In this document: piece after piece, positions 1,631 to 23,296 of the stretch | Layout: every line of letters begins with the position of its first letter | Numbering within the stretch: position 1 is the first letter of the stretch | Source of the DNA: an uncultured Lentisphaerales bacterium | GTDB taxonomy: Bacteria; Verrucomicrobiota; Lentisphaeria; JABSQK01 | Assembly (NCBI GenBank): GCA_964384625.1 | Contig: CAYLNH010000009.1 | Span: 1-61,854 of the forward strand | Direction of reading: 5' to 3' | DNA length: 61,854 bases | Program-made: the position numbers and the translations under genes | Notes under the pieces: model-generated | What the model saw: only the letters and a program-made list of their open reading frames with translations | The model's database searches: none | Told to the model about the DNA's origin: nothing

Positions 1631-2782
1631 TCACCATTTGGGATAGCTGTATACCAGGATATGCTGCTCGCCCCAGAGGATGCGGTCGGGGGTTTTCGGG
1701 AAGACGTCCTGCTTGAGGTCCAGGCCGCGCACGCCTTCGAGGCGATGGCTGACCGTCGCCAGTTCCGCGCGGTTGTTGCAGGCGACAATCTGGACGATAT
1801 CGCCGCCGAACGGCGCACCGATGCGGTACTTGAAGCCGGCCTTGTCCCCGGGGATCGTGATGATCCTGTTTTTCTGCACCTTCGTATCGGCATTGTGCCG
1901 GTTTGGAAACAGCCTGGAGGTCGTGCCGTCGATCTGATGGCAGAAGATGGCGATGTGACAGTCGCGGTCGACGCGGACGCGATAGCGGATTTCTTCGCCG
2001 CCGAGAAAGTGGTTGCGGCCGCCTTCGACCCAGATCTCCGCTTTGATCTTGCGGTTGGCCAGGTTCTTGTTTACCTGCGCCAGTTTGTTCAGGTTCAGTT
2101 TGCGGTTGCCGATATTCTGTGGCTGGAAGAAGTCTTCCCGGTTCTGCGGCGTAACCGCCTCCTGCGGTTTGCTTGCCGCCCGCCTGAGGACCTCCTGCGG
2201 CACATCCCCGACCACCGTTACCTGTTCGCCGCCGTTGAGCAGGCTCAACGTGACCGACAACGAAACGGTTTTCTCTTTGTGCGTGTAACGGCCGTCCAAC
2301 AGGGCGTCAACGCCTTTGACGTTGATCTTGACGATGGTATGCGGATCGATCAGGTTCGAGCTCTGCAGCTCCTTTTCCTGGACCATCTTCTCGAGATGCT
2401 TGCGGCCGATGACCGTCAGAGTCTTCGATGTGCCCAGGGCCTCGCGCAGTCTGTCCTCGAGCATCCGCGACACGGTGCTGATGCCTTCGCTGCCCTGGTT
2501 GGCACAGGGGAAATCGCCGACCATGACGCGCAGCTCTGCCCTGGCGAGTTTGTCTTTGGCCTGCTCCTCCAGGCGGGTGACCAGGTCGGCGTATGGATCG
2601 CCGGCGAAAGCGCCGGCGGCAAGGAGGAGTACAGCGAAGGCAAACAGCCAGGTCCCATGCCTCGCCGCTGCAGCGTTCTGGAGCACAGACCTGCTCGGCC
2701 GCGAGGCAGTACCCCGGGCTGGCATCTTACGCCCCCCTGATGCTGCCGGATTTCGGGTTGTCGTCGGCATAGCGGTTGTCAT
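1631..2782 (-). CDS. Secreted protein with a CsgG/FlgO-like N-terminal domain and a DUF4384-like C-terminal region. The start could instead be the internal Met at 2725.
   Basis: Signal-peptide-like stretch WLFAFAVLLLAAGAFAG. The segment RLREALGTSKTLTVIGRKHLEKMVQEKELQSSNLIDPHTIVKINVKGVDALLDGRY matches the CsgG-family pattern (repeat ... LD.I..E..LQ.SG..D..T...G..LGADY). Family assignment is from memory. Confidence 0.55.
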   Translation of the reverse strand: MTTAMPTTTRNPAASGGRKMPARGTASRPSRSVLQNAAAARHGTWLFAFAVLLLAAGAFAGDPYADLVTRLEEQAKDKLARAELRVMVGDFPCANQGSEGISTVSRMLEDRLREALGTSKTLTVIGRKHLEKMVQEKELQSSNLIDPHTIVKINVKGVDALLDGRYTHKEKTVSLSVTLSLLNGGEQVTVVGDVPQEVLRRAASKPQEAVTPQNREDFFQPQNIGNRKLNLNKLAQVNKNLANRKIKAEIWVEGGRNHFLGGEEIRYRVRVDRDCHIAIFCHQIDGTTSRLFPNRHNADTKVQKNRIITIPGDKAGFKYRIGAPFGGDIVQIVACNNRAELATVSHRLEGVRGLDLKQDVFPKTPDRILWGEQHILVYSYPKW

Positions 2783-2815
2783 TCCATTTTCGGTTTGAGT
2801 CGGCTGTATCCGGCA

Positions 2816-3901
2816 TTATGCATCACTCACAAAGAACAGGCAGTGGTCGGCAATCTGGAGGCAGTCGCCGGGATACAGGGGCCATTCGCCGACGCGCCGG
2901 CCGTTGCGCCAGAGGCCGTTCGTACTGCCTTCGTCGCGGACCAGCCAACCGTCGTCGGTGCGTTCGATGCTCGCGTGAGTTGCGGAAACACCGTCGCCGG
3001 CCAACTGGAGGTCACACGTGCCGCCGCTGCCGATCACAATGTTGTCCGCCAGGGGGTGCCACTGCGATTCCCGGTCGGACACGGTCAACAGCCATTCGCC
3101 GGTGTCCGGGGCGGGGTTCTTCTGGAGGATACTCTGCAGTGCACTCATCTTTTCGAACACCGGGGCTTCCGGTTCGGCAATGACCATCGTGTCCCGCAGC
3201 TCCTTGCGGGAGGTGATGTAATCTTCGAGGACCCCTTTGAGTTTCCTGCGGGCCGCGGCGTCGCTCGCCAGGTCCGGGCTGAAGTCGTGCAGGCCCTCCA
3301 GCAGCCGGACGAACTCCTCGCGCAGGAGATCAAGGAAACTGCTCTTATGCTGGAAGATCGTGCCGACGCGGATACCCATGTCCGCACTCACTTTGTCGAC
3401 GGGTTCCTCGTAGATGACGTACCGGCGGAAAGACTCGTACTTCTCGGGTTTCACGCGCTTGCGGGCGGCATCGAGGGCGCTGTCGAGGATGTGGTTCAGC
3501 CAGATCCGGTCCATGGCGGCTTCGCGTTCGGAATCCGGGCTGACCTGTTCTTTCGAATGCGGCGAGTCGAGCTTCCAGCGATCGGGATCCGGATCATTGT
3601 CGGGGCGTTCGGCGTGTTTCATTTCCCAGCGGATATAGTCGCGGACCCGGCATTGGACGATCGTCTTGAGCCATTTGCGGAAAGACCCGGGATCGCCGGT
3701 GTGCCGGAACTTCGACAGGTTGCGCAGCAGTGACAGCACGGTGTTCTGGAAGATATCCTCCGCCACCGAATCACTGCAGCCGAACATCCGGGCCCAGGAG
3801 GTGATCAGGCCCCAGTAGAACCGTTTGAACTCCTCCCAGTCGGCTTCGTCGCCGCCGGCCTGGAGTCGCATCAGCAGGGTTTGTCGAGTTACGTCAGACA
3901 C
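2816..3901 (-). CDS. ECF-type sigma-70 factor with a C-terminal FHA domain
   Basis: The N-terminus has sigma-70 region 2 (DWEEFKRFYWGLITSWARMFG ... AEDIFQNTVLSLLRNLSKF) and region 4-like helices. The C-terminal 90 aa (WLLTVSD...IVIGSGGTCDLQLAGDGVSATHASIERTDDGWLVRDEGSTNGLWRNGRRV) is a typical FHA phosphothreonine-binding fold. Confidence 0.75.
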   Translation of the reverse strand: MSDVTRQTLLMRLQAGGDEADWEEFKRFYWGLITSWARMFGCSDSVAEDIFQNTVLSLLRNLSKFRHTGDPGSFRKWLKTIVQCRVRDYIRWEMKHAERPDNDPDPDRWKLDSPHSKEQVSPDSEREAAMDRIWLNHILDSALDAARKRVKPEKYESFRRYVIYEEPVDKVSADMGIRVGTIFQHKSSFLDLLREEFVRLLEGLHDFSPDLASDAAARRKLKGVLEDYITSRKELRDTMVIAEPEAPVFEKMSALQSILQKNPAPDTGEWLLTVSDRESQWHPLADNIVIGSGGTCDLQLAGDGVSATHASIERTDDGWLVRDEGSTNGLWRNGRRVGEWPLYPGDCLQIADHCLFFVSDA

Positions 3902-4040
3902 AGGGTCAGAATTCAGGGTTTCCGCCGGCGGCGGACCAGCCCGCGGCCGGCAGGGTTCAGGAAACGGCAGTCAGCTCCATGGGAACGACGGAACCGGGAA
4001 AATCCGGTTGTCTCACAAGCACGTGTCACAATTATTCCAA

Positions 4041-5345
4041 TCAAGCAGCCTTCTTTGGTTTACGGAGGAGGATGAGTCCACCGACCACAGCAATGATGCC
4101 GCCGACAATCAGCGGCCAACGCCACGGCGAACCGGTTTTGTCGAGCTTGGACGAACCGGAGCCCGGGAATATTCGCCGGATGCCGCTGATTGTCGAGCTC
4201 TCAACCGGTACCATCAAGATGTAGCCGGAGGTCCGCTGGTCAAGCTGATGCCGGGGCAGGACTGCCTTGATCACATCGCTCAGCTGCGACGTGTCCAGGC
4301 GGCTTTCAAGCGCCAGCGTCGAAATCAGCTTCGCATCGAACTCGCGCTGGTACACCTGGCCGATGCCGGCCGTGCCCCTGAGGACGTGTGTGAGCTGGTC
4401 GAACTCCGCCCGGGTCACACCCGTAAGCTCCACCTCGACCTTGCGGCCGAGGTCCAGTTCCGTCATCCAGCGGACAATGATCTTGCGCAGGAGGTCCCCG
4501 GCGGATGCCTTCCGGGTATCCGGGACCTTGCCCTGCAGGTAGCGGGTGACGCAATCCACGGCACCGGCCGCACCGGCAACGTCGGTGGTCAGCGTCGTTG
4601 CCGGCGGCGAGATTTCGGCGATGGTCTCACCGGTATCGGCCCAGATTGCGGAGAGCTCGGCGGCAACGCCAAAACGATTCAGCTCGACGCCGTAGACCTT
4701 TGTCCGGCCCTTTGGTGAAACCTTGATCTTCGCCCGGATCAGGACGTCGTAAGGCAGGGAGGTCTCGGCCCGGCGGCCGCCCGCCAGGCGTTTGGAGCCC
4801 GTGAGGCGATCGCGTTCGGCGCGACGGCCGGCGGCCGAATTCGCGGTGTCGAGATCCTTGACGTGAAGTTGATGGGCCAGCGCCAACTCCCGCAGCGCCC
4901 CGCGGACGTCGACTGTGCTGTCGACGCCGTCGAGCTCGGTCTGGATTGCGACGCGCGGGGACTGCTTGCGCTTGATCAGCAGCGCCAGAATGTCCTGCTG
5001 CGACGTGAACTCGTCCGTATCGCTGACGTTTGCCTTCACCGTGACGCGATAGATGCCGTCGTCGCCGTAGCCCTGGGAGACGATCTCGTAGCGCCGGACA
5101 AACCCGAAGGCCCGGGTGAACACCAGGTCGTACTCGGCCGCGAAATCCCGGGTGCCGGTAAGCGACGTCACCCTGGTACCGATGCCCTGGCGGACGGCCT
5201 GGCGCAGCGCGTCGGCCAACGCGATCTCACGAGCTTTGGCGGCGTTCGCCGCCGTTGCCCGGCCGGTAGCCGTGAGTGCCACGTCCCGGGCGCCGACCGG
5301 AACGATCAGACCGGCGACGACGACGATGCGCAGAAGTGCTTTCAC
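4041..5345 (-). CDS. Secreted or membrane-anchored protein with an LPP20/FlgP-like domain and a C-terminal TM helix. A GTG start is proposed.
   Basis: Signal peptide VKALLRIVVVAGLIVPVGA. The domain AAKAREIALADALRQAVRQGIGTRVTSLTGTRDFAAEYDLVFTRAFGFVRRYEIVSQGYGDDGIYRVTVKANV fits the LPP20 pattern. The C-terminus WPLIVGGIIAVVGGLILL is a TM anchor. The ORF-track N-terminal 45 aa (KTPFNKTPFN) is translation of a tandem DNA repeat, so I place the start at the GTG (cac on the plus strand at 5343-5345). Confidence 0.5.
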   Translation of the reverse strand: MKALLRIVVVAGLIVPVGARDVALTATGRATAANAAKAREIALADALRQAVRQGIGTRVTSLTGTRDFAAEYDLVFTRAFGFVRRYEIVSQGYGDDGIYRVTVKANVSDTDEFTSQQDILALLIKRKQSPRVAIQTELDGVDSTVDVRGALRELALAHQLHVKDLDTANSAAGRRAERDRLTGSKRLAGGRRAETSLPYDVLIRAKIKVSPKGRTKVYGVELNRFGVAAELSAIWADTGETIAEISPPATTLTTDVAGAAGAVDCVTRYLQGKVPDTRKASAGDLLRKIIVRWMTELDLGRKVEVELTGVTRAEFDQLTHVLRGTAGIGQVYQREFDAKLISTLALESRLDTSQLSDVIKAVLPRHQLDQRTSGYILMVPVESSTISGIRRIFPGSGSSKLDKTGSPWRWPLIVGGIIAVVGGLILLRKPKKAA

Positions 5346-5361
5346 AGGACTGTTCCTGACG

Positions 5362-5391
5362 TTGAATGGGGTTTTGTTGAATGGGGTTTTG
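5362..5391. repeat. 15-bp direct tandem repeat, two copies (ttgaatggggttttg x2), in the 5' leader of the gene at 4041..5345
   Basis: Seen directly: cgTTGAATGGGGTTTTGTTGAATGGGGTTTTGtaatg. Confidence 0.8.
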
Positions 5392-5439
5392 TAATGTAAC
5401 ACGGGCGCCTCACCTGTGTAGTTGTTTTCCCCGGCGCTC

Positions 5440-6246
5440 TCACGGTTTGTTCGGTTCCACAGTTCGTTCCGGGGCAACACCGAAGCCGGTCACGGAATAC
5501 GTCTGTTCAACCGTCGGCAGGTCCGCCTGCAGCAGGCGCTCGGCGGTTGCCGCATCGACTTCGGCCACCGCCAGCAGGCGCTTGAGTGCCTGGGGCACTT
5601 CCTGCGTGCGCAGCCTGACGGTGACGGCGCAGCTGCCGTCACTGCGGTAGACCACGTCGGTCGGCTGCAGTCCGCGAATCCAGGTGTTGACACCGGTACG
5701 GATGACGTCGTGGTGAAGCAGGAGGTCCTTGACGGTGGTTCTGGTCCCGAGCTTCAGCCCGGCCAATCGTTCGGCCATCTTACGGGCGGCATCGACTTCT
5801 GCCGCACGTTTCGCGAGAATTCTGGCTGCTCCCGGCGTTCCCGGGAGCGCCCCGTTGCCGGTGGCGGCGACCAACTGCGCCCGACGATCTTTGCCGACGA
5901 CTTTGACGCCGCAGGTCACATAGACGATGCCGGTTGCAGTATATGTCGGCGGATCGAGACGGACGGCGCCTTTGAGCCGGGCAGTCACAGCGCTGGTAAC
6001 GGCACCCTTGACCGACTGCAGGTTTTCGACCTTCGCTTTTCCAGTCAGCTGCCGGCCGAAGATCCGTTCCACGAGCCGTCGGCGGGCGTCGATCTCAGCC
6101 ACCCGCAAAGCAGCCAGCCTGGCCCTGGGCCCGGCATCCTGCCAGACTCGGGGGAGGTCGAGGGCTTCGTCGCGCGGCATCTGGCCGCAGACAGATCCTG
6201 CCAGGCCAAGCAGCAACAGCGCGCCAACAAGAACGATGCGAGTCAT
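5440..6246 (-). CDS. Secreted protein with two tandem LPP20/FlgP-like domains
   Basis: Signal peptide MTRIVLVGALLLLGLAGSVCG. Two repeats: ARLAALRVAEIDARRRLVERIFG...TATGIVYVTCGVKVV and ARILAKRAAEVDAARKMAERLAGLKLGTRTTVKDLLLHHDVIRTGVNTWIRGLQPTDVVYRSDGSCAVTVRLRT. The second matches FlgP/LPP20 (AKRAAE.DAYRKLAE...V.S.T.V.D....I.T.V.G.L.GA.....DG...V.L). The upstream 118 aa of the track ORF (Arg-rich) was rejected. Confidence 0.6.
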   Translation of the reverse strand: MTRIVLVGALLLLGLAGSVCGQMPRDEALDLPRVWQDAGPRARLAALRVAEIDARRRLVERIFGRQLTGKAKVENLQSVKGAVTSAVTARLKGAVRLDPPTYTATGIVYVTCGVKVVGKDRRAQLVAATGNGALPGTPGAARILAKRAAEVDAARKMAERLAGLKLGTRTTVKDLLLHHDVIRTGVNTWIRGLQPTDVVYRSDGSCAVTVRLRTQEVPQALKRLLAVAEVDAATAERLLQADLPTVEQTYSVTGFGVAPERTVEPNKP

Positions 6247-6547
6247 CGGGGGTGATCTCCAGTTCAGCTCGTGGAGTAATCGCGAACCGGCAGGAGATCT
6301 CACGCCCCCGACCGCCGCGGCTGTGGAACACATGATTGACGTTGTGAACCGCGGCGATGACGTTTCTCGGGGGGAGATCAGCACTTCCCGGCGCCGCCCT
6401 CGACCGGCAGGCTGCTGCCCGTTCATGCCGCCCGCGGCGACCGTGGAGCGACGAGTTCGACAGCGTGACCGCCGGAATGTGCCCCCCTCATGCGCTGGAC
6501 TTTGCCGGAACCGCTCCCCGAGGACGGGCGACGGCTGCCGGGAAACG

Positions 6548-7579
6548 TTAATCCGTTTTCTCGGGCTGCAAGGTCTGCAGTTCTTCCTCGAGGTCTTCAA
6601 TCAGGTCTGCGGCCGTCTTGATCGCGTTCTTGAGTTCGTGGATGCGGCTTCGTGCCCGGTTGTATTTCTTCGTGAAACGCTTCGCCGCTTCCTTGCGGTA
6701 TTCCTGTTTCTTCAGTTCGAACTCGAGATCTTTCTTCTTGTTCTTGAGGTCTTTGAGCCGGGCCTCCACTTTGCCCCGGCGGCGATCGTCCTTGAGCTCT
6801 TGCGCCCGTTGACGCTGGGCCTCTTCTTCTTCGGCCCGAATCCGGGCGCGCTCGTCGGCGATCTCCTTGCGTTTCTCGGCGTGCTCCTTCATCTCTTCAA
6901 CGCGTTTCTGTCCGGCCAGCCAGGTGCGGTAGGCATGGCTGCTGCCGGCCATCACCGGGACGTAGGCGCGCGGGTTGGAGCGGATGGCTTCGCGGAACGC
7001 TTTGTAGTTGGTGATCGCGAAGTAGGCGGCGCACATATGGGCTTTGCGGCCGTCGCCCAGATCGAAGCGGGTCTTGCTGACAGGCCGCAGTTCGCCCTCA
7101 AACGCCCGACCCTTCCGATAACGCCGCGTCGGTATCTTGACCGCATACACCTTGTCCACGTCGGTCACCACCATCAGCTCATCCGTGATGACGCTGTCGA
7201 CCTTGCCCTTGACGCGTCGCAGGCTCTTGTCGCGCTGCAGCAGGTTCTTGTCGTGGTCCCAGACATATCCGGCGCGGGCCACCTGGAAGGACGCCCAGAC
7301 CACGCGGCGGTCAAAGCTCAGCAAGTGTGCCAGGTCCTGGGCGTTCAGGTTTTTGAGCGGCACGCGAAAGGGCTCTTCCGGGTTGTCCCCACAGATCTCC
7401 ACATGGCCCTTGTCGATGCGCCAGAACTTCCCGGTCCACGTCTGTTTACCATCCAGACTGTTCCATTTGCGGACGACTTCGCCGCGGCCGGGGCGTTCGT
7501 CTTCGGGCGGCGGCTTTTCGTCCTGGGCCCGCAGCGCCAGGCCGCTGCAGAACAGCACAAGCATCAGCAGCGTACGCAT
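6548..7579 (-). CDS. Secreted hypothetical protein with a C-terminal lysine/glutamate-rich coiled coil
   Basis: N-terminal signal peptide MRTLLMLVLFCSGLALRAQ. The C-terminal 120 aa is KEIADERARIRAEEEEAQRQRAQELKDDRRRGKVEARLKDLKNKKKDLEFELKKQEYRK, with heptad-like charge periodicity. No family recognised. Confidence 0.5.
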   Translation of the reverse strand: MRTLLMLVLFCSGLALRAQDEKPPPEDERPGRGEVVRKWNSLDGKQTWTGKFWRIDKGHVEICGDNPEEPFRVPLKNLNAQDLAHLLSFDRRVVWASFQVARAGYVWDHDKNLLQRDKSLRRVKGKVDSVITDELMVVTDVDKVYAVKIPTRRYRKGRAFEGELRPVSKTRFDLGDGRKAHMCAAYFAITNYKAFREAIRSNPRAYVPVMAGSSHAYRTWLAGQKRVEEMKEHAEKRKEIADERARIRAEEEEAQRQRAQELKDDRRRGKVEARLKDLKNKKKDLEFELKKQEYRKEAAKRFTKKYNRARSRIHELKNAIKTAADLIEDLEEELQTLQPEKTD

Positions 7580-7922: not shown

Positions 7923-7990
7923 TACACGGAAAAGACATTGCCTGTCCCGAATACGCCTGAAGTCAGGCCATTCTGCGGTAGCCCCCTTGG
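7923..7990. repeat. Copy 2 of the roughly 65-nt repeated element (same 26-nt core as positions 1..26)
   Basis: Exact match of tacacggaaaagacattgcctgtccc, and the downstream sequence gaatacgcctgaagtcaggccattctgcggtagccccc is similar to copy 1. Located 3' of the minus-strand tsaD stop. Contains the hairpin gcctga-ag-tcaggc. Confidence 0.7.
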
Positions 7991-8001: not shown

Positions 8002-9087
8002 TTACGCGCCAAGCGCAAACGGCACCATGGAAACATCGCCCAGGCGCGGCGCGGCGTCGATGCTGAAGTCATCCGCTCTGCCGGCGCGGACGTAGTAATA
8101 GCCGAGGCCGGCGACCATGGCGGCGTTGTCGGTGCAGTACTTCGGCGGGGCGATAAACAGCGGGACCTTGACGGCGTCCGCCATCTTCTGCCGAAGCCGG
8201 CTGTTGCAGGCGACGCCGCCGCTGAGCGCCACGGTTCGGGCGCCGGTGTCCGCCAGAGCCCAGAGCGTCTTTTTCACCAGGGCATCCACGATTGCTTCCT
8301 GGTAGCTGGCGGCGATGTCGGCGACCGCGTCGTCGGCCAGGTCCAGCGGCTGGTCGAGGTTGCCGGCGTTTTCAACGCCTTTGACCTGATACAGCAACGC
8401 GGTTTTGACGCCGCTGAAACTGAAGTTCAACCGGTTCTTCGGCTTCAAGGCCTGGCCGCCGCCGCCGCAGAGGCCGCGGGGGAAGTCGCAGGCTGCGGGG
8501 TTGCCGACCTTGCCGAGTTTGTCGATCACCGGGCCGCCGGGATACGGCAGTTGGAGGATCTTCGCAGCCTTGTCGAAGGCTTCGCCGGCGGCGTCATCCA
8601 GCGTCTGTCCGAGGAGTTTGCAGGAGCCGTCGGCGGCGGTCAGCAACAACGCGGTATGGCCGCCGGAAACGACCAGCGTCAACAACGGATAGGCTTCCGG
8701 CAGCTGCAGGCGGTCCGGCGTTTCGAGGAAGGCGCCGAAGACGTGGGCAAGAAAATGGTTGATGCCGACCAGGGGTTTGGCGGTTGCCGCGGCCAGGCCT
8801 TTGGCGAAGGAGAGACCAACCAGCAGCGCCGGCAGCAATCCCGGACTGCTGGTGACGGTGACTGCGTCGATGTCGTCCAACGCGAGTTCGGCCTGGTGCA
8901 GGGTCTGCTGGAGGATCGGCCGCAAGGCTTTCAGGTGTTCGCGGGCGGCCAGTTCCGGGATGACGCCGCCGTAATCGGCGTGCTTGGCCACCTGCGATGA
9001 AACCAGACTGGCCGTGACGTTGTGGCCGTCCCGGACCACCGCCACGGCGGTCTCGTCACAACTGGTTTCGATCCCGAGGACATTCAT
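8002..9087 (-). CDS. tsaD: tRNA N6-adenosine threonylcarbamoyltransferase
   Basis: MNVLGIETSCDETAVAVV start with the GIETSCDET Kae1/TsaD signature. HxxH metal site in INHFLAHVFGAF. The C-terminus has ALSGGVACNSRLR. 361 aa. Confidence 0.9.
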   Translation of the reverse strand: MNVLGIETSCDETAVAVVRDGHNVTASLVSSQVAKHADYGGVIPELAAREHLKALRPILQQTLHQAELALDDIDAVTVTSSPGLLPALLVGLSFAKGLAAATAKPLVGINHFLAHVFGAFLETPDRLQLPEAYPLLTLVVSGGHTALLLTAADGSCKLLGQTLDDAAGEAFDKAAKILQLPYPGGPVIDKLGKVGNPAACDFPRGLCGGGGQALKPKNRLNFSFSGVKTALLYQVKGVENAGNLDQPLDLADDAVADIAASYQEAIVDALVKKTLWALADTGARTVALSGGVACNSRLRQKMADAVKVPLFIAPPKYCTDNAAMVAGLGYYYVRAGRADDFSIDAAPRLGDVSMVPFALGA

Positions 9088-10373
9088 TGCTGTTTCTTCT
9101 CCTCCGGTACCGGCGTCGGCGTTGCCGGGGACTCGTCGATCGGCTCGCCGTTGATCTTCTTCCGCATCACCTCAATCGCCTTTGTCATCTGCGGGTCGGG
9201 CACGTCATCCGCTTTCTTGTCGGAGCGGTAGCGGCGCAGTTGCCGGTAGAGCTTCGGCATGTCGGCGGGCGGCGGCGCAATCCGGATATTCGGGGAAATG
9301 CCCCGGCCGTGGATGACCTTATTCGCCGGGGTGTAGTAGTGGCGCGTGGTCAGATGGACGGAGCTGTTGTCTTCCGGCAAGCGGAACACGAGCTGCACCG
9401 AGGCCTTGCCATAGGTGCGCTCGCCCACCAGAACCGCGCGACGGTGGTCCTTCAGGCAGCCGGCCAGGATCTCCGAAGCGCTGGCGCTTTGTTCATTGAT
9501 CAAGATCACCAGCGGCAGGTCCAGAAGCTTCTCCCGGCTGTTGCGGGCAAAGTGCGCGTCGCTCCGGGCATCATTGCGCGGCACTGTGGTCACTACCAGA
9601 GAGCCCCTCGGCAGGAAGATGCTCGCCACGTCGACCGCGGCCGTCAACATGCCGCCCGGGTTGAAGCGGAGATCAATGATCAGCCCCTTCAGCCGGCTTT
9701 TCATCTCGACCAGCACCTTGGCCATTTCCTCGCAGGTCTTTTCGTTGAACTGCACGATCTGCAGATAGCCGATGCCGTCATCGAGCAACTGCGCCCGCCG
9801 TACCGTCGGATATTCAATCAGCCGACGCATGACCTCGGCGTCGAACTCCCGGTTTTCCGATGCCCGGAACATGGTCAACACAATGCCGGTGCCGGCCTTG
9901 CCTTTGACCAGGCGGCGGACCTCTTCATTCGGCATGTTCTTGGTATCCTTGCCGGCGATTTCCATGATCTGGTCGTCGGCTTTCAGGCCGGCCTCTTCCG
10001 CCGGGCCTTCGGGCACAACCTGAACAATGGTCGGACGCCCCTGCAACTGATGGAACTCGATCCCGATGCCGGTGTACTCGCCGCGATTCGTCTCACTGAA
10101 GTGCTCGGCGGCGGCCGGCGGGAAATAGGAACTGTGCGGGTCCAGGTGGTTCAGCATGCCGTTCAGCGCGCCCGCCGTCAGATTCTCATAGCCGATGACC
10201 GTTTCGTCGTCGGTGACATACCAGTCGCGCACCAGGCCGATGACGCGCACAAACTTGCGCAACTGCATGATGCCTTCACGATGGTCGTCGGAGAAGTATC
10301 TGACGCCGATGAAGAGGTTCAGCGGCAGCACAACGGCCAGGACAAGCTGACAAATCTTGTAGTTTCGTTCCAT
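9084..10373 (-). CDS. ctpA: Carboxyl-terminal processing protease (S41 family) with a PDZ domain
   Basis: N-terminal TM/signal, a PDZ-like region (GIGIEFHQLQGRPTIVQVVPEGPAEEAGLKADDQIMEI) and an S41 catalytic region (LIIDLRFNPGG ... LINEQSASASEILAG with the Ser-Lys dyad context). Overlaps the tsaD start by 4 nt, so an operon. Confidence 0.8.
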   Translation of the reverse strand: MERNYKICQLVLAVVLPLNLFIGVRYFSDDHREGIMQLRKFVRVIGLVRDWYVTDDETVIGYENLTAGALNGMLNHLDPHSSYFPPAAAEHFSETNRGEYTGIGIEFHQLQGRPTIVQVVPEGPAEEAGLKADDQIMEIAGKDTKNMPNEEVRRLVKGKAGTGIVLTMFRASENREFDAEVMRRLIEYPTVRRAQLLDDGIGYLQIVQFNEKTCEEMAKVLVEMKSRLKGLIIDLRFNPGGMLTAAVDVASIFLPRGSLVVTTVPRNDARSDAHFARNSREKLLDLPLVILINEQSASASEILAGCLKDHRRAVLVGERTYGKASVQLVFRLPEDNSSVHLTTRHYYTPANKVIHGRGISPNIRIAPPPADMPKLYRQLRRYRSDKKADDVPDPQMTKAIEVMRKKINGEPIDESPATPTPVPEEKKQQ

Positions 10374-10586
10374 CTGGGTTCCGCAGCTAGGCTCCGCCTA
10401 CCTTACTCAGGGGCGGGATGAAGTCAAGATCGCGGGCGGGCCGGCGGCGGGGTCAGCAGGGCGATGCGTCCTTCGACCGACTTCGGGAACCCGGGAGCCG
10501 GGTTCGGCGGCACGGGACCCGGCGGTGCGAATGACATGAATGGCGGCGCCGTTGCTCCACGGCGGAGGGCCGGGTCCGGTCCGGGA

Positions 10587-13500
10587 CTATGCCTGGATGG
10601 CCGACAAGTCGGCCAACGGCAGGATCAGGTCGAGAACGCGCTGTACCAGACGATGGCGATTCAGACGGATCTTGTCGTCTTCGGCGTTGACCATGACGCC
10701 GTCAAAAAGCGCGTCGACCCGGCTGCGGATCGGGGCCGTTACCGCGAACGCCGCGGCCAGGTCCTGATCCGCCAGAGCCGTTGCCAGCCTGGCCTCGGTG
10801 TCGGCGACTGCCTGCAGCAGGTCCCTTTCGCAGTCGTCCTCGAACAGGGCGTCGTCGACGGCGCCGTCGACGCGCTGCTTGAGAATGTTGTTGGTGCGCT
10901 CGAAGACGGCAGCAACGTCAGCGAAAGCTTCATTGCCGCGGAAGGCCTGCAGCGCCTCGACTCGGGCGACGAAGCTGGCCAGGTCGTACCAGCCGTCGGC
11001 AGCCTGAGCGACGGCATCGAGGGTGTCCCAGGCGAACGGTCCGGGCAGTTCGGCACAACTGCCGTCCCGCAGGAGTCCCTTGACCCGGCCCAGCGTGAAT
11101 TCCAGGATGCGGTCAATCAATTCGTTTTTGTCCGTCTTGGCCAGGACCTCGCCGTGGATGTCGAAGCTGCGCTCCAACAGCTCGCGCAGGTCGAGGCGGA
11201 AGCCGAACTTGATGATGATGGCGGCGCTCGTCAGACAGGCGCGCCGCAGAGCGAACGGGTCGGCCGAGCCGGTCGGCAGTTTGACCGCGGCCCCGATACC
11301 GACCAGCGAATCAAGGCGATCGGCCAGACCGACGACCGCCGCCGGCACGGACGCGGGGAAGTCGTCCTTGACGCTCTTCGGCAGGTAGTGGTCGCGGATG
11401 CCGTCGGCGACGACCGGGTCCAGGCCTTCCTGGCGGGCGTAGTAGCGGCCGACATCGCCCTGGAGTTCGGGGAATTCGCCGACCATCTTGGTGATCAGAT
11501 CGGCTTTGCAGAGCCGGGCGATCTCGTCGACCTGCTGTTTCTCAGCGGCGTCGAGGCCGAGTTCATCGGCGATGACGCCGGCGAGTGTACGAAACCCGCG
11601 GACCTTGTCGCCGATGCTGCCGAGTTTCGCCTGGAAGGTGACGCCGTCGAGGTCTTTGACGCGATCGCCGAGAGCGGTTTTGACGTCGTCCTGCAGGAAG
11701 AAGCGGGCGTCGTCAAAACGCGACCGCAAGACTTTTTCATAGCCCTGACTGACCAGGTTCATGTCTTTGCAGACCATGTTGGAAACCGCGATGAAATGGT
11801 TGCTGAGGGCGCCGTCGGGCCCGACGCAGGCGAAGTATTTCTGATGGCCCTTCATCTCGGTGACGAGGACCTTTTCCGGGATCTCCAGGTACTTCTCGTC
11901 AAAGGCCCGCAACACCGGGACGGGGTATTCGACCAGGTAGTTGACTTCCTCCAGCAGTTCTTCATCAACCAGCCATTTCAGGCCGTGGGCTGTGGCGAGG
12001 TCATGGATTTGCTTGCGGATCAGATCACGGCGTTCGGTTTGGTCGGCATAGACTTTGTTGTCGCGCAAGGTTTGCAGGTACGCCCCGCGATCGGCGCTGA
12101 GGCGGATCGGGCGGTTCGCCATGAACCGGTGACCGACGCTGTATGCGTTGCTTTTGATGTCGGCGAATTCGCAAGGCACGACGGCATCGCCAAGGAGGGC
12201 AGCGAGCCATTGCACCGGCCGCACAAAGGACTCCTTGATGGTGCCCCAGCGCATGGTTTTGTACCAGTGGATAGCTCTGATGAACTCGGGAATCACGGCG
12301 CCGAGGACGTCGGCGGCCGCCCGGCCCTCCTGTCGGCGGACGGCGAACAGGTAGTCGTCGCCGTTGACTTCGCGGATCTCGGCGTTGTCGAGCGAGATGC
12401 CGTTCTTCTTCGCGAAGCCCTCGGCGGCCCTGGTCCAGTTGCCGTCGTCGTCTTTGGCGATTCGCAGCGGCGGACCTTTCAGCTCGAGCAGCTGATCGTC
12501 CTGCCGGGTTTTCATGGCGCCGACACTGACGGTCAGGCGGCGCGGGGTGACATAGAACTCGACGTCCTGCGGTTCGAGGTCGGTCGGTTCGAAGTGCTTT
12601 TTGAACAGCTCCGGGAGTTGTTTGAGCAACGGCCCAAAGACCTGGGCCGGCATTTCTTCAACCCCGACTTCGAGCAGGAAGGGGGCGCGCTCCGGCAATT
12701 CGGCGGGCCCGGCCGGACGTTCGCGCTGCTCTTTCTTGACGACCGTACCGGCCCGTTCAACCAACGGGAAGCCCAATGCCTCGCGACTGGCCATCCAGGC
12801 CTCGGCCACGGCGCGCGCCAGCGTGCGAACGCGGAGGATGTAGTTCTGGCGTTCGTTGACGGAGATCGCGCCGCGGGCGTCGAGCAGGTTGAAGGTATGG
12901 CTGGCCTTGAGGCAGTAGTCGCAGGCGGTGACCGGGTTGCCGGCGGCGCTGAGGGCGAGGCACTCGGCTTCGAAGTCGTCGAAGTGCCGCGAGTGCATGG
13001 CGACATCGGCCAGCTCGAAGTTGTGCGTTGAACCCTGCCGTTCGTTTTCGTGAAACAGATCGCCATACGTGAACTGCTCGTTGTACTGCAGATCGTAGAC
13101 GTTGTCGACGCCCTGGAGGAACATGCAGAGGCGTTCGAGACCGTAGGTGATCTCGCCGCAGACGTGCGGCAGCTCGAAGCCGCCGACCTGCTGGAAATAG
13201 GTGAACTGCGTCACTTCCATGCCGTCGGCCCAGACTTCCCAGCCCAGGCCCCAGGCGCCGAGTGTGGGCGACTCCCAGTCGTCGTGGACGAACCGCAGGT
13301 CGTGTTCTTCGGGGTCGATGCCGATCGCGCGCAGGCTGCCGAGATAGAGGTCGACGATGTTGTGCGGACTCGGCTTCAGGATCACCTGGAACTGATAGTA
13401 GTGCTGCAGCCGGATGGGGTTGTCGCCGTAGCGCCCGTCCGTCGGCCGGCGGGACGGTTCAACGTAGGCGACGTTGAACGGCTCCGGCCCGAGCGCGCGC

Positions 13501-13619
13501 AGGAACGTGTTGGGGTTGAAGGTGCCGGCACCCTTCTCGAGGTCATAGGGCTGAGTCAACAGGCAGCCGTGATCGCCCCAGTACTGCTGGAGCGTCAGAA
13601 TCAGCTTCTGGAAATACAT
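10587..13619 (-). CDS. glyQS: Glycine--tRNA ligase with alpha and beta subunits fused in one 1010-aa polypeptide
   Basis: The N-terminal ~300 aa matches GlyQ ([39 protein letters not shown] ... FTYFQQVGG ... [18 protein letters not shown]). The remainder matches the GlyS beta subunit (HD-like and anticodon-binding regions). Single uninterrupted ORF. Confidence 0.85.
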
Positions 13620-13818
13620 CAGGAAAACTCCGTGATCGGATTAAACAGCAAGGGTCCAAGCCGCCTACGATAGCAAAAAAACAGGGGATTGCACGGTCGT
13701 GCAGGCGGCTTTTTCCGAGGCCGTCAGATTGAAATCAGGCGGTCCCGGGCCTATATGTTAGGACGCGGAGGGAAGCTCACAACGATAGATCATTTGCTGA
13801 ATTACGCAGGACGATCCC

Positions 13819-14523
13819 GTGGCTGACGAGCAGAGAACGGTTGACGTGCCGCCGCCGCCTCCGGTTGAGGATGCGGGGGTCGGCGCGCCCGATACCAGTC
13901 CAACCCAGAGTTCCAAGGTCATCCCCTTGGCGCGCTCGAATATTTTTCTCTACCTGACGATCATCTTTGTGGGCGTCAATATCATCCTGCCGCGCTATGT
14001 CGCGCTGGGCTGTCACGGCCTCCTGGTCATCCTGCTGGTGCTGCTGTTGATCTGCTACCGGAAACCGGAGAATTTCCCCGACTGGTTCCAGACATTGCAG
14101 AAGAATTTTACCGCGCGACTGGCGGAGAACCCGCCGGAGATTTCCGTGATCTTCGGCATTGTCCTGCTGTCCATTGTCAACAACGTCTTCCTGGCCGGCG
14201 AGGAGTTCGAGATCGTCCCGCGCAGTCGCGAGCTATTGTCGGTCGCCCTGGTCGTCGGCGCCTTCCTGCTCAATCGGCGCAAGCGTAAGTATAATTTCGG
14301 CAAGCGTTCGGTCTGGGACCTGTTTCGAAAGGATTCCATGAGCCGGGTGAAGGTCCGCAAGAACGTTGTTGAGGAGCCGGAAGAAGACCAGCGTCCGGTG
14401 TCGTCTGAATCCCAGGTGCTGAAGGCCGATCAGAACCGCAAACGCTGGGAACAACGGCAGAAGCAGCGCTGGGAAGAATGGATCATGGAAGAAGTGGAAC
14501 GGCTGAACGACGACAAGAAGTAG
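13819..14523 (+). CDS. Hypothetical polytopic membrane protein with about 4 TM segments and a highly charged C-terminal tail; GTG start
   Basis: Hydrophobic segments IFLYLTIIFVGVNIIL, LLVILLVLLLICY, ISVIFGIVLLSIVNNVFLAG and LLSVALVVGAFLL. The C-terminal KRWEQRQKQRWEEWIMEEVERLNDDKK is charged. Local GC is lower than surroundings. RBS-less GTG start, so coordinates are tentative. Confidence 0.5.
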   Translation: MADEQRTVDVPPPPPVEDAGVGAPDTSPTQSSKVIPLARSNIFLYLTIIFVGVNIILPRYVALGCHGLLVILLVLLLICYRKPENFPDWFQTLQKNFTARLAENPPEISVIFGIVLLSIVNNVFLAGEEFEIVPRSRELLSVALVVGAFLLNRRKRKYNFGKRSVWDLFRKDSMSRVKVRKNVVEEPEEDQRPVSSESQVLKADQNRKRWEQRQKQRWEEWIMEEVERLNDDKK

Positions 14524-14578
14524 CCGGCCTGATGATCAGGCAGCCCGGGAGATTACGGCAAATTGAGGAGGCCCTTAC

Positions 14579-16300
14579 GTGACTGTTGCCCTGGTTGATC
14601 CCTCAATTCATGCACAGAAGGAACGTCTCAGCGACTACGCCCACCGGCTGCACGGGATCCTGGCGCAGCTCGACCTGAAACAGCTCCAGCCCGATCTCGA
14701 AAACATCCAGCGCGGCATCAACAAGCCCTTCCTCTTTGTCATCCTCGGCGAAGTCAACGCCGGAAAGAGCAGCCTGGTCAACACCCTCCTGGAAGATGAG
14801 ATCTGTCCGACCGACGTCTCGCCCTGCACCGACGTCATCCAGGAGATCGTGCACGCCGACTACAAGACGACGATCGAGAAGTCCGAGTTCGAGCGCGAGA
14901 TCGGGCTGCCCATCGATATTCTCAAAGAAATCTCCATCGTCGATACGCCCGGGACGAATTCCATCCTCGAACACCACCAGCGCATCACCGAAGGCTACAT
15001 CCCGCAAAGCGACCTGGTCATCTTCGTGCTCTTCGCCAAGAACCCATATACCAAGAGCGCCTGGGATCTGTTCTCGCTGATCCGCCAGGACTGGAAGAAA
15101 AAAGCCGTCTTCGTGCTGCAGCAGGCCGACCTCTGCAGTGACGACGAGATCGCCACGCACAGCGAAAACGTCGCCAAAGAGGCCGTGGAACGCGGTGCCG
15201 ACGACCCGAAGGTGTTCGCCGTCTCCGCCAGAGAAGGCAGAGGCATCAGCGAACTGCGCGACTTCGTCCTCGACCATGTCACCGGCGGCAGAGCCTGGGA
15301 ACTGAAGGCCGAATCGATCCGCAACTCACTTGCTGTAGTCAACGATCAGGTCGACACGTTCCTCAAAGCCCAGATGGACATGCTGCGCGCCGACCAGGAA
15401 CGCGAGCAGGAGATTCGCCAACTGCTCAATCCCGATCGTTCCGATTCCGAGATCGACCATCTGATCCAGCGGATCATTCAGCGCTACCGCACCATCAGCG
15501 AAGACTTCCGCCGCAAAATCGAGCGCGGGCTCGGCATGTGGCCGATCGTCAAGCGTTCGTTCGTCGGCATGGTACAGCGCGATGAATCCCTCCGCAACTG
15601 GGCCGAACGCGTCACCAAAGCCTATGAGAAGGACCTCCTTAAAGTCGTGGAAGACAACTCGCTCGAGTACGCCACCGACTTCATTACGGACCTCAAGAAG
15701 ACCTGTCGCGGCATCGTCGGCAAACTCGAAGACTCCATGCAGGAGATCGGCCAGGCGCAGGGCTTCGACTGGAACGACAAGCTGTCGACCGATCGCGAGC
15801 AGATCCTGGCCAAAGTGATCAAGCGCATCGAGGAATACTTCGACAGCGAGGAATACCTGAAGGCCATCGACTCGACCCAGGTCGACGCGATCCCGTCCAG
15901 TCTCGGCAAAGGCGGCGCACTGGCGATCATCGGCGTGGTCATCATGTACGCCACGCAGGTGGTCTGGCTTGACTACACCGGCGGCGTGTTGACGGCGGTC
16001 GGCGTGTTGGGCTCGATCGCGTACGCGACATTCAAGCGCCACGCCGTGATGGCCGGGCTGGCGCTTCAGATTCAGGAAGGCGAGTACACCTTGCGCCGCC
16101 GGCTGCAGTCGGATCTCAGCGATCGCCTGACCGGCATCTACCAGGGGATCGAACGCGAACTGCTCCCGTTCTTCCAGAACGTCGCCGCCCGCGCCGCCCG
16201 TCTGGAGCCGGTCAGCGAAGAGTTCGACAAACTCAAGGCTTCCTTTTCTGCGAATGAAGCATCCGAACCGGAATCAGATTCCACCGGCGAAGCCGAATGA
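14579..16300 (+). CDS. Bacterial dynamin-like GTPase; GTG start with a GGAGG ribosome-binding site
   Basis: G1 P-loop GEVNAGKSSLVN, G3 DTPG (IVDTPGTNS), large GTPase domain with long helical stalk regions, and a C-terminal hydrophobic hairpin (GALAIIGVVIMYATQVVWLDYTGGVLTAVGVLGSIAYATF) resembling a paddle or membrane-insertion region. GGAGG lies 7 nt upstream of GTG 14579. Confidence 0.75.
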   Translation: MTVALVDPSIHAQKERLSDYAHRLHGILAQLDLKQLQPDLENIQRGINKPFLFVILGEVNAGKSSLVNTLLEDEICPTDVSPCTDVIQEIVHADYKTTIEKSEFEREIGLPIDILKEISIVDTPGTNSILEHHQRITEGYIPQSDLVIFVLFAKNPYTKSAWDLFSLIRQDWKKKAVFVLQQADLCSDDEIATHSENVAKEAVERGADDPKVFAVSAREGRGISELRDFVLDHVTGGRAWELKAESIRNSLAVVNDQVDTFLKAQMDMLRADQEREQEIRQLLNPDRSDSEIDHLIQRIIQRYRTISEDFRRKIERGLGMWPIVKRSFVGMVQRDESLRNWAERVTKAYEKDLLKVVEDNSLEYATDFITDLKKTCRGIVGKLEDSMQEIGQAQGFDWNDKLSTDREQILAKVIKRIEEYFDSEEYLKAIDSTQVDAIPSSLGKGGALAIIGVVIMYATQVVWLDYTGGVLTAVGVLGSIAYATFKRHAVMAGLALQIQEGEYTLRRRLQSDLSDRLTGIYQGIERELLPFFQNVAARAARLEPVSEEFDKLKASFSANEASEPESDSTGEAE

Positions 16301-21216: not shown

Positions 21217-22131
21217 ATGGTCTGCCCGCGGTGCCACCGGTTTTTCACCTGGTCGGGGATGCAGTTGGACGCGGCCGGCTTCCACCTGATCTGCCGGGAC
21301 TGCCGCACGGCCGAGGCGACCGCCGCCCGCAAACGGCGACCGCTGCGCCTCCTCCGTCATCCCGGCGTGTACGTCGTCCTGATTGTCTTGACGGCCGGCC
21401 TGCTCTGGCTGGGCGGTGCCGGTCGAATCGACCCGGACGAGCTGAAAGAGGCCGACAAACAACGGCCGTGGTACCTGCAGGAGTATGCCGGGCTGATCCT
21501 GGAACGGGCCGGCGCAGCCAAACGGCGGACCGACTTTCTGGTCGCCGAAGAACGCACCGACGCGATTCCGCGATGGGCCGAACTCGGAGAGGCATCATTC
21601 CGGGAACTGGCCGAGCTCTGGCGGGAGACGCCGGCAAAGCCCGATCTGCTGCTCGGCGCCGCGTTGATGCGGGCGGCCCGCGGGGAAAACCGGCAGGCCT
21701 ATGCTGAAGCCGCCGCGCTCACCGGGCACTACGGCGAGCGCAGCCCGGTTTACCCCGGCTATCACTTCATCTGCGGCCGCCTCGCCCTGGCGGCCGGCGA
21801 CAAAAATGCCGCCCGCAAACACCTCGAACGTGTCCTCGGCGCGGCGGCGCAGCCCCGCGACCTCGTTGCCGCCGCCGGCAGGCTGATGGGGGTGGCGCAC
21901 GCGCTGTCCGACGATCCGCAGGCCTACATGAAACGCGAGAAAGTCTGGCTGGCGGTCGGGCTGCCGTCCATGCCGATGGGGCTGCTCGAGCCCACTCTGG
22001 AGCTGATGGCTGACCATCGCATCGCCTCGAAGATGGCGGCGGAGATCGAAACGGAGCTCGGCCGCAATGTCAGCGTGCCGAATGACGGCGAAGACGCGCC
22101 GGACCTGGTGATTGAAGACCTGGAGGACTAG
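21217..22131 (+). CDS. Membrane protein with an N-terminal zinc-ribbon (CxxC...CxxC) and a single TM, anti-sigma-factor-like topology
   Basis: MVCPRCHRFFTWSGMQLDAAGFHLICRDCR ribbon, then the TM VYVVLIVLTAGLLWLGG, then a helical, TPR-like extracytoplasmic domain. Its stop (22129-22131) is 1 nt before the rhomboid ATG. Confidence 0.5.
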   Translation: MVCPRCHRFFTWSGMQLDAAGFHLICRDCRTAEATAARKRRPLRLLRHPGVYVVLIVLTAGLLWLGGAGRIDPDELKEADKQRPWYLQEYAGLILERAGAAKRRTDFLVAEERTDAIPRWAELGEASFRELAELWRETPAKPDLLLGAALMRAARGENRQAYAEAAALTGHYGERSPVYPGYHFICGRLALAAGDKNAARKHLERVLGAAAQPRDLVAAAGRLMGVAHALSDDPQAYMKREKVWLAVGLPSMPMGLLEPTLELMADHRIASKMAAEIETELGRNVSVPNDGEDAPDLVIEDLED

Positions 22132-22132
22132 C

Positions 22133-23296
22133 ATGCTGATCCCCTACGAAGTCGAGCATGACCCGCACAACGCCCAGGAGAGCGCGTGGCTGGTGTACCT
22201 GTTCCTGTTCGGCTGGTTCCTGGTCTGGGTCTACACCGGCATGATGCTGCGCGGGCCGGCGCAGCAGGACGTCTTCTATCGGTTCGGCATTTCCCGGTTC
22301 GAATACCGCTGGTGGACGTTTTTCACCTGCAGCTTCCTGCACGGCGGATTCATGCACCTGCTCGGCAACAGCCTGTTCTTCTGGCTTTACGGCGCCAGCC
22401 TGGAGAAGCTCGTGGGTTCGTTCAAGTTCCTGTTGCTCTACCTGGTCGGCGCGTTCCTGAGTGTGAACATTCAGATCCTGACGATGAACGAGCTGCAGGC
22501 GTACGAACCGTGCATCGGCGCCTCGGGCGCGGTCTCGGCGATCCTCGGCTGCTTCTTCGTGATGCTGCCGCGGGCCCGGCTGCGCTGTCTCTTCTTCTCG
22601 CCGATCAGCTTCCGGCCGATCATGATCCTGGCGCCGGCCTGGCTGGTGCTGGGCCTCTGGTTCGGCGGGCAGCTGCTGTTCACCCTGGGCGTCATGGGGG
22701 CGATGCCGAAGATCGCCTTCTGGGCGCACGTCGCCGGCTTCGCCGCCGGCGCGGCCGCGGGCACCCTGCTCAACCTGGATCGTCGGCGCCGGCTGCGACG
22801 GTGGTCGGCCCGGGCCAAGACACCGATGCAGACCGCCTGGAGCCACTGGATTGCCGGCCGCCCGCTGCCGGCGCAAACCGTCCTGGACGAGAATCCGCAG
22901 GTCCATCCGGACGCCCGGGCAACCCGGACCTTTATGGAGGCGGCCCTGAGCCTGGCGCAGAACCCGGGCCGGGCCGGACCCCTGCTCAAGGCATTCCGCC
23001 AGGCCAGCGATTATCACAACGACGCCCTGCAGGTCTCGCTCTACCTCCGGATGATCCGGTCTCTGGACCCCGGCGACGTGCCGCCGGCGATCCATCGCCA
23101 AGCCGGCTTCGCCGCGATCACTCAGAAGCAGGACGACCTGGCGCTCACCGCCTTCTGCCGCTCGCTCGGCGTTGAACTGCACGACCGCGACGATCAGATG
23201 CTCCAGGGCCTGGAAACCATGTTCGCCGAACGACGGCGGAACCCGGCGCTCGTCGCCGCTGTGAAACAACTCCGCCGGCCGCAGACCGGCGGGTAA
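22133..23296 (+). CDS. Rhomboid-family intramembrane serine protease with a C-terminal soluble extension
   Basis: FLHGGFMHLLGNSLFFWLYG (rhomboid HxxxN region), the GASGAV catalytic Ser motif (GxSG), a downstream His in AFWAHVAGFAAG, and 6 TM segments. The C-terminal ~150 aa is a non-membrane, TPR-like extension. Confidence 0.8.
   Translation: MLIPYEVEHDPHNAQESAWLVYLFLFGWFLVWVYTGMMLRGPAQQDVFYRFGISRFEYRWWTFFTCSFLHGGFMHLLGNSLFFWLYGASLEKLVGSFKFLLLYLVGAFLSVNIQILTMNELQAYEPCIGASGAVSAILGCFFVMLPRARLRCLFFSPISFRPIMILAPAWLVLGLWFGGQLLFTLGVMGAMPKIAFWAHVAGFAAGAAAGTLLNLDRRRRLRRWSARAKTPMQTAWSHWIAGRPLPAQTVLDENPQVHPDARATRTFMEAALSLAQNPGRAGPLLKAFRQASDYHNDALQVSLYLRMIRSLDPGDVPPAIHRQAGFAAITQKQDDLALTAFCRSLGVELHDRDDQMLQGLETMFAERRRNPALVAAVKQLRRPQTGG

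Follow-up and report, generated by a model that had tools for sequence, protein, structure and literature searches.

The DNA analyzed here, referred to throughout as the window, is a whole NCBI contig of 61,854 nt (CAYLNH010000009.1; GC about 63%) from an uncultured Lentisphaerales bacterium. A series of minus-strand genes runs from tsaD to a proA-like aldehyde dehydrogenase gene, and between these two lie five genes, designated in transcription order g5, g4, g3, the sigma-FHA gene and g1 (Table 1). A first-pass annotation, made from the letters alone, had called these five genes and proposed that one of their products, a sigma factor of the extracytoplasmic function (ECF) type carrying a forkhead-associated (FHA) domain, is controlled by Ser/Thr phosphorylation and governs an envelope assembly built by its neighbors. 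All five genes exist. The intergenic gaps, from tsaD to proA, measure 422, 301, 94, 139, 33–90 and about 178 bp; this spacing suggests obligatory co-transcription only for the sigma-FHA gene and g1, which are probably co-transcribed across their gap of 33–90 bp. A terminator-like hairpin between tsaD and g5 likely insulates the g5-to-g1 cluster from upstream transcription. Our subject is the sigma-FHA protein, its family and its possible link to a Ser/Thr kinase pathway.

The sigma-FHA protein was matched by the TIGR02937 ECF sigma model over residues 22–193 (61.3 bits, cut-off 42.9) and by Pfam Sigma70_r2 (37.6 bits, cut-off 24). Pfam Sigma70_r4 gave no match in the protein, and sigma4 is covered by TIGR02937 and by helices 152–203 of an AlphaFold2 (AF2) model. 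With sigma2 and sigma4 as its only sigma regions and with recognition by an ECF profile, the protein is an ECF (group 4) sigma factor. The Pfam FHA profile (PF00498) matched with 54.5 bits (cut-off 20.7) over positions 1–66 of 67. The AF2 model, built on 57 family members (pLDDT 86.3, pTM 0.76), revealed the order sigma2 helices, disordered acidic sigma2-sigma4 linker, sigma4, four linker helices (209–261) and an 11-strand sandwich (269–359). In a Foldseek search of the PDB, the C-terminal domain superposed on the FHA domains of GarA, OdhI, FhaA and DgcB with TM-scores of 0.8–0.9, and the best match of the whole chain was Mycobacterium tuberculosis EmbR (2ff4, 2fez; E about 1e-7). TIGR02937, Pfam, AF2 and Foldseek confirm the sigma-2/sigma-4 and C-terminal FHA regions named in the first-pass annotation. 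Its description of the FHA domain as complete holds for the fold, but not for the arginine of the canonical GR motif, which is replaced by Ser292. About 160 residues follow sigma4, well over the 50 that mark a C-terminal extension, and no anti-sigma factor is co-encoded: Pfam and NCBIfam detected no anti-sigma domain in the flanking genes, although a divergent anti-sigma could escape such profiles.

Table 1. Features of the sigma-FHA locus. Positions are those of the 61,854-nt window, except in the last row, where they are those of another sigma-FHA locus (L010).
Feature	Position	Strand	Description
sigma-FHA gene	2816–3901	−	361 aa; ECF sigma with C-terminal FHA domain
sigma2 region	3614–3889	−	residues 5–96; sigma2.2 acidic E48-D49 and Q52 kept
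sigma4 region with helix-turn-helix	3293–3520	−	residues 128–203
Helical linker, sigma4 to FHA	3098–3292	−	residues 204–268
R236-D237-T238	3188–3196	−	within conserved R-x-T-hydrophobic-hydrophobic motif
FHA beta-sandwich	2825–3097	−	residues 269–359; Pfam and Foldseek
Ser292 codon	3026–3028	−	canonical phosphate-binding Arg position of FHA domains
g1	1631–2782 (gene-caller start 2725)	−	secreted; CsgG/LpoB-like alpha/beta domain 2267–2533; DUF4384 1778–2002
g3	4041–5345 (revised; best start 5345)	−	434 aa, exported; FlgT_N/FlgP-like N-domain 5022–5276; tail 4044–4145
g4	5440–6246 (revised; best start 6246)	−	268 aa, exported; tandem FlgP/LPP20-like domains 5872–6159 and 5572–5844
g5	6548–7579	−	343 aa, exported; C-terminal Lys/Glu/Arg-rich coiled-coil region 6551–6910
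Terminator-like hairpin	7787–7755	−	13-pair stem and T tract; between tsaD and g5
tsaD	8002–9087	−	first of minus-strand series, in transcription order
proA-like aldehyde dehydrogenase	127–1452	−	last of minus-strand series
Convergent operon by sigma-FHA P0027 (L010)	9072–15567		kinase (TPR/Sel1), Sel1 protein, combined FGE-sulfatase + Sel1 protein, 403-aa protein with weak transglutaminase-like match

The word-indexed search returned only 11 relatives of the sigma-FHA protein, while an exhaustive HMMER search gave 47 matches below 1e-30. About 60 representative clusters (50% identity level) match over the full length of sigma, linker and FHA, with 24–61% identity, and the closest homologs are labeled as Lentisphaeria or Lentisphaerae metagenome-assembled genomes (MAGs). 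D49 and Q52 of sigma2.2 are nearly invariant across the family. In a rough neighbor-joining tree built from just the sigma domain, 51 of the 60 fusion proteins fall within a single split, along with 9 of 73 FHA-less ECFs, which suggests, at the level of sequence comparison, that the fusion is old and has been maintained. At least three paralogs (P0015, P0018 and P0027, at loci L008, L009 and L010) are encoded in a single 8.6-Mb genome (ENA ERZ21878193 ctg13505c), suggesting a lineage-specific expansion of the family; two of the three lie near kinases and one does not. A pattern scan for further loci with family alignment A1 yielded only two genome loci, a duplicate included, plus one truncated metagenome locus; family alignments A2 and A3 were too varied to be scanned in this way. 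A 235-aa version, P0011, is present in two Lentisphaeria MAGs (L004, 664–1371; L007, 363–1157). Its tblastn match starts at query residue 85, so that sigma2 is missing, and it is either a truncated or pseudogenized sigma-FHA or one with a mis-called start. P0012, a 180-aa fragment from another dataset, is 98% identical to residues 11–180 of the window protein, indicating that a near-identical organism was sampled elsewhere. No description of an ECF-FHA fusion was found in the literature searched, reviews included.

Both a comparison with M. tuberculosis FhaA and an alignment of 60 family members put Ser292 where FHA domains canonically have their arginine. The commonest residue at this position is R (33 of the 60 members), followed by S (13), A (6), T (3) and K (3). 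The rest of the pocket is strongly conserved: G291, S306 and H309 do not vary at all, N328 and G329 hardly vary, and Thr327 is found in 38 of 60. The window protein therefore carries four of the five canonical phosphothreonine-binding residues (Ser306, His309, Thr327 and Asn328) and lacks the key phosphate ligand. Canonical phosphothreonine binding cannot be assumed for an FHA domain without this arginine. The closest homolog, P0001, likewise lacks it (reading 'GT') and sits directly behind a kinase gene (locus L002).

Upstream of the FHA domain, the helical linker, put at about 85 aa, contains an R-x-T motif followed by two hydrophobic residues. Its threonine, T238, is conserved in 88% of members (T in 51 of 60). 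No other residue on the way from the last part of sigma4 to the glycine of the FHA domain is as conserved, and in 40 of these 51 it is spaced 52–56 residues from G291. In the AF2 model it lies in a coil of intermediate confidence (pLDDT about 72). By sequence and by this model, T238 is a conserved threonine in a flexible segment flanking the FHA domain, as in the GarA/OdhI-type switch, and it is a candidate phospho-acceptor or FHA ligand. A weaker pocket would be tolerable for an intramolecular ligand.

Gene contexts were read for 11 independent neighborhoods, namely the window and 10 other sigma-FHA loci. A Hanks-type kinase gene recurs among the 10, adjacent to the sigma-FHA gene in two and within 4 kb in one. 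At L002 it lies directly upstream of the closest homolog (61% identity), at L008 it is divergently adjacent, and at L010 the sigma gene has beside it the end of a convergent kinase operon, which is possibly a multi-protein sensor complex (Table 1). The kinases of L002 and L008 resemble each other most, being 39% identical over 366 aa with the pre-kinase segment included, compared with 26–33% identity to the other kinases. Their ectodomains differ, with FGE-sulfatase in the L002 kinase and a CsgG/LpoB-like domain plus DUF4384 (66.4 bits) in the L008 kinase. A kinome survey lists FGE-sulfatase and DUF4384 as alternative C-terminal domains of the bacterial kinase family 'Proteo1' (bioRxiv 10.1101/2025.01.12.632604).

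The gene that follows sigma-FHA in the window, g1, is related to one of these ectodomains. Residues 51–382 of g1 align with residues 338–680 of the L008 kinase (26% identity, E 4e-29), and g1 matches DUF4384 (PF14326) with 61.5 bits (cut-off 27). The first-pass annotation had called g1 CsgG/FlgO-like. The match to CsgG (PF03783) does lie above the cut-off (25.9–28.6 bits against 20.8), but it covers only profile positions 10–104 of 210, the N-terminal half, and is overlapped by a weak LpoB match; g1 has no lipobox, its conserved Cys lying in GDFPC. It thus lacks the full domain with barrel-forming hairpins that CsgG channels carry on a lipoprotein, and is better described as a kinase-type sensor ectodomain. 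A homolog search found two relatives (P0156 and P0157), whose signal peptides are of the ordinary, cleavable kind and which lack a cytoplasmic tail; g1 is therefore taken to be secreted, and we rejected the idea that it is anchored in the membrane and stands in for an anti-sigma factor. The short contigs of the g1 homologs give no sign of a sigma-FHA gene upstream: the upstream gene fragment at L013 is on the opposite strand, and L012 offers only 108 bp. An AF2 model of g1 from three sequences had a pLDDT of 40.7, too low for use, and a profile of g1 and its homologs matched nothing in the PDB. By sequence, g1 is a secreted, kinase-less copy of a DUF4384-type sensor ectodomain, and it is likely to act as a periplasmic accessory or competitor of the sensor. 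A parallel split arrangement is seen at L010, where a stand-alone FGE-sulfatase protein is 41% identical to the ectodomain of the L002 kinase.

From these comparisons we favor, with about an even chance (roughly 50%), a membrane Hanks-type Ser/Thr kinase pathway that has sigma-FHA as its transcriptional output and in which the FHA domain and T238 would replace the anti-sigma factor. The kinase would sense an envelope cue through its periplasmic FGE-sulfatase or CsgG/LpoB-like plus DUF4384 sensor, and the sigma factor would be recruited, phosphorylated or both, T238 being the prime candidate site. The FHA domain would then read a phosphothreonine, which could be T238 of its own chain (in cis, the GarA/OdhI way) or one on the kinase (in trans, the EmbR-PknH way), and this reading would switch the sigma factor between a closed and an RNA polymerase (RNAP)-competent state. 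The first-pass proposal of Ser/Thr phosphorylation in place of an anti-sigma factor is upheld in this form by the lack of an adjacent anti-sigma domain, by the kinases at L002, L008 and L010 and by the homology of g1 to a kinase ectodomain, with the arginine-less FHA domain as a qualification.

Several observations weigh against this kinase-pathway interpretation. The phosphate-binding arginine is missing in 24 of the 60 members, including the entire clade nearest to the window protein. Compensation by basic residues at 307 or 327 was considered and rejected, such residues occurring in 10 of the 24 arginine-less members and in 8 of the 36 others, a difference that is not significant (p 0.15). 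The +3 position relative to T238 is only loosely hydrophobic. Eight of the 11 neighborhoods have no kinase within 5 kb, and the window itself is among those that offer none: no Pkinase or PP2C gene was found among the 40 largest open reading frames (ORFs) of the 61.8-kb contig.

The remaining genes of the cluster were examined for their own affinities. The two halves of g4 are homologous to each other (z 8.6), and phmmer against solved FlgP structures matched the first half to Vibrio 8z5n (E 2.7e-4) and the second to Campylobacter jejuni 9hmf_C (E 5e-7). The tandem LPP20 domains proposed in the first-pass annotation are supported by this repeat and by the FlgP matches, whereas Pfam LPP20 (PF02169) stays at 22.2 bits, below its cut-off of 25.9. 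The codon-position GC signal of g4 is weaker than that of its neighbors (GC3 0.73 against about 0.80), and an antisense ORF of 277 aa (5422–6255, plus strand) mirrors its statistics; the signal peptide, ribosome-binding site and FlgP homology of g4 led us to accept it as the coding strand. In g3, the N-domain shows homology to the second g4 domain (z 7.7) and reaches 27.7 bits with FlgT_N, just under the cut-off of 28.8; no profile matched the remaining 286 aa, the three-domain architecture of FlgT (FlgT_N, FlgT_M, FlgT_C) is absent, and a homolog search returned no relative other than g3 itself. The C-terminus of g3 consists of LDKTG, a hydrophobic transmembrane helix and RKPKKAA, an LPXTG-like tripartite tail that scored 19.6 bits with LPXTG_anchor when scanned alone (cut-off 15.9). 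Such a tail occurs here in a presumably diderm bacterium of the PVC group, and no sortase was seen on the contig. A single LPP20/FlgP domain with a transmembrane anchor, as first proposed for g3, thus agrees with the g4-related N-domain and with the hydrophobic helix and basic tail, but the FlgT_N score is sub-threshold. The call of g5 as exported with a coiled coil is borne out by its signal peptide and its Lys/Glu/Arg-rich C-terminal region. The three genes encode real FlgP/SHS2-like and coiled-coil exported proteins, without a demonstrated regulatory link to the sigma factor.

An alternative is that sigma-FHA is a dedicated regulator of g5, g4, g3 and g1, whose products would build a non-flagellar, FlgP/CsgG-like envelope ring or disk. 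The five genes share a strand behind the terminator-like hairpin after tsaD. Ring-forming FlgP proteins are matched by both g4 domains, and the second aligns without gaps across the FlgP region described as holding the ring-forming hairpin (PMC12222027); the N-domain of g3 is related to g4. The lack of flagellar genes that the first-pass annotation had remarked on is borne out on the contig, no such gene being found among its 40 largest ORFs, but 62 kb cannot show that the organism is without flagella. Against this alternative, g3, g4 and g5 recur in none of the 10 other sigma-FHA loci, as judged by reading and by tblastn against all loci, and these neighborhoods are otherwise unrelated. Moreover, g3 has no detectable homolog, the gaps of 301, 94 and 139 bp leave room for separate promoters, and g1 matches only half of CsgG and lacks a lipobox. 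No common motif was apparent by inspection in the upstream regions of 10 homologs, the GC content of which varies widely. The 11-mer CGGAAACGTCG is found both upstream of g5 and downstream of g1. With up to one mismatch allowed, the window contains it 6 times where 2.7 occurrences are expected, and as many turn up in 6 of 100 shuffles, which is not significant; a shared ECF-type promoter is not established. We therefore did not retain the first-pass picture of an envelope assembly governed by the sigma factor, which adjacency alone supports, and regard such a local regulon as unlikely.

About equally unlikely, in our judgment, is that the FHA domain is a degenerate, phospho-independent module that contacts sigma2/sigma4 or RNAP and auto-regulates the sigma factor in the manner of ECF41 and ECF42, with no kinase involved here. 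The loss of the arginine throughout the clade of the window protein without clear compensation would fit this explanation, as would the contig without a kinase, the orphan state of most homolog genes and a high pTM (0.76), which hints at domains held in a fixed arrangement; among the modes of ECF regulation, C-terminal extensions rank second in frequency (PMC7826278). It is difficult to reconcile, however, with Ser306, His309 and Asn328 being invariant or nearly so, and Thr327 being kept in 38, across 60 divergent members, or with the position of the arginine-less P0001 directly behind a kinase, and it leaves the conserved linker threonine and the kinase-ectodomain gene g1 unexplained. Less probable still is an ECF43-type mechanism, in which a kinase would activate the sigma factor through phosphorylation of sigma2.2 or of the linker joining sigma2 to sigma4 and so give rise to contacts with RNAP, the FHA domain serving only as a docking aid. 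Phosphosites in both regions are documented for EcfP and EcfK (PMC13147305), the kinase neighborhoods L002, L008 and L010 would suit it, and the sigma2-sigma4 linker of sigma-FHA is Ser-rich and acidic. Yet that linker is poorly conserved and poorly modeled (pLDDT 52–61), and sigma2.2 retains E48-D49 and Q52 where ECF43 proteins have an uncharged QTTA.

Outside the cluster, the contig holds a few further features. An exact 26-nt direct repeat, TACACGGAAAAGACATTGCCTGTCCC, occurs at 1–26 and 7923–7948 (chance expectation 0), one copy thus lying at the very start of the contig. Each copy is 55–100 nt downstream of a minus-strand stop codon (proA and tsaD), and the two bracket proA, g1, sigma-FHA, g3, g4 and g5; the repeat could be a weak terminator that recurs or an element of the REP-like kind, or it could have caused the break in the assembly. 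The alpha and beta subunits of glycyl-tRNA synthetase are fused in a 1010-aa ORF (10587–13619, minus strand; tRNA-synt_2e and tRNA_synt_2f). A dynamin-family GTPase of 573 aa (14579–16300, plus strand; Dynamin_N 67.6 bits) is preceded by a 234-aa ORF without a family match (13819–14523), and a rhomboid-family protease is encoded at 22112–23296.

Taken further, the kinase-pathway interpretation would make the sigma-FHA proteins an ECF group not described before. In place of an anti-sigma factor, they would have an in-cis phospho-switch made of T238 and an FHA domain with a non-canonical, arginine-less pocket; a single family of membrane Ser/Thr kinases would supply the signal, with the sensor ectodomain either fused to the kinase or encoded apart, and g1 would be the secreted, separate form that tunes the pathway. 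We offer this fuller version only tentatively, and hold it to be rather less probable than the kinase link itself. To our knowledge, direct control of sigma factors by Ser/Thr kinases has so far come from a few ECF43 cases, in which phosphorylation creates RNAP contacts. If the interpretation is true, a sigma factor with its own phosphothreonine reader would represent a third design beside anti-sigma factors and direct phosphorylation of sigma2.2, and two large signaling families, the ECF sigma factors and the FHA/Hanks kinases, would be joined in one polypeptide. T238, S292 and S306 are concrete residues to mutate. An FHA pocket that lacks the arginine and is otherwise invariant bears on how FHA domains recognize their ligands, and the occurrence of DUF4384 and FGE-sulfatase ectodomains in fused and split form provides a handle on two widespread, uncharacterized kinase sensor domains.

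Among the known systems that resemble parts of this locus, FlgP of C. jejuni and Vibrio is matched by both g4 domains, although the Pfam scores stay under the gathering cut-offs, and the layout of two FlgP repeats is shared by g4 and FlgQ (PMC12222027). In contrast to the FlgP, FlgQ, Lpp20 and FlgT systems, g3 and g4 have no flagellar context on the contig, and g3 carries a C-terminal anchor instead of the middle and C-terminal domains of FlgT.

The sigma factor itself resembles ECF41, ECF42, ECF56, ECF238 and other groups in having a sigma2 and sigma4 core, an extension longer than 50 aa and no anti-sigma factor next to it. The sigma domains of the fusion proteins cluster together, a pattern also reported for other types of extension (Casas-Pastor et al. 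2021, PMC7826278). That re-classification lists SnoaL-like, TPR, Cys-rich, DUF1835 and transmembrane extensions, whereas sigma-FHA has an FHA domain, which goes unmentioned in its main text. ECF43 is defined by replacement of the DxxD of sigma2.2 with an uncharged QTTA containing a phosphorylatable Thr, and its members (Vibrio parahaemolyticus EcfP with PknT, Xanthomonas citri EcfK with PknS) likewise have no anti-sigma factor; several genomes show them in genetic linkage with a transmembrane Hanks kinase (PMC13147305). For sigma-FHA, a kinase is adjacent at two and within 4 kb at one of the 10 other loci, and none is on the window. They have no FHA domain and are activated by phosphorylation in sigma2.2 or in the sigma2-sigma4 linker (PMC13147305). 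Sigma-FHA differs in reading VAEDIFQN in sigma2.2, with E48-D49 kept, and in having its conserved threonine downstream of sigma4.

The logic of a transcription factor whose C-terminal FHA domain reads a Hanks kinase would be shared with M. tuberculosis EmbR. EmbR is a transcription regulator that docks on phosphorylated PknH through its C-terminal FHA domain, in which the canonical arginine is retained. Its other domains are an OmpR-type winged helix and a BTAD rather than sigma2 and sigma4, and the overall TM-score is 0.25. In GarA/OdhI and Bdellovibrio DgcB, the ligand of the FHA domain is a phosphothreonine on a flexible tail of the same protein. Given the close FHA fold (TM 0.8–0.9) and a conserved threonine in a flexible segment at a fixed distance from the FHA domain, we infer by analogy that the layout of sigma-FHA is that of the GarA/OdhI-type proteins. 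The differences lie in the effector, which is an inhibitor of metabolic enzymes or a cyclase in GarA, OdhI and DgcB and a sigma factor here, in the motif, which is ETTS in GarA/OdhI and R-x-T-hydrophobic in sigma-FHA, and in the missing FHA arginine. ECF sigma factors with a regulatory extension or a link to a kinase are already known; the FHA domain as the extension appears to be new.

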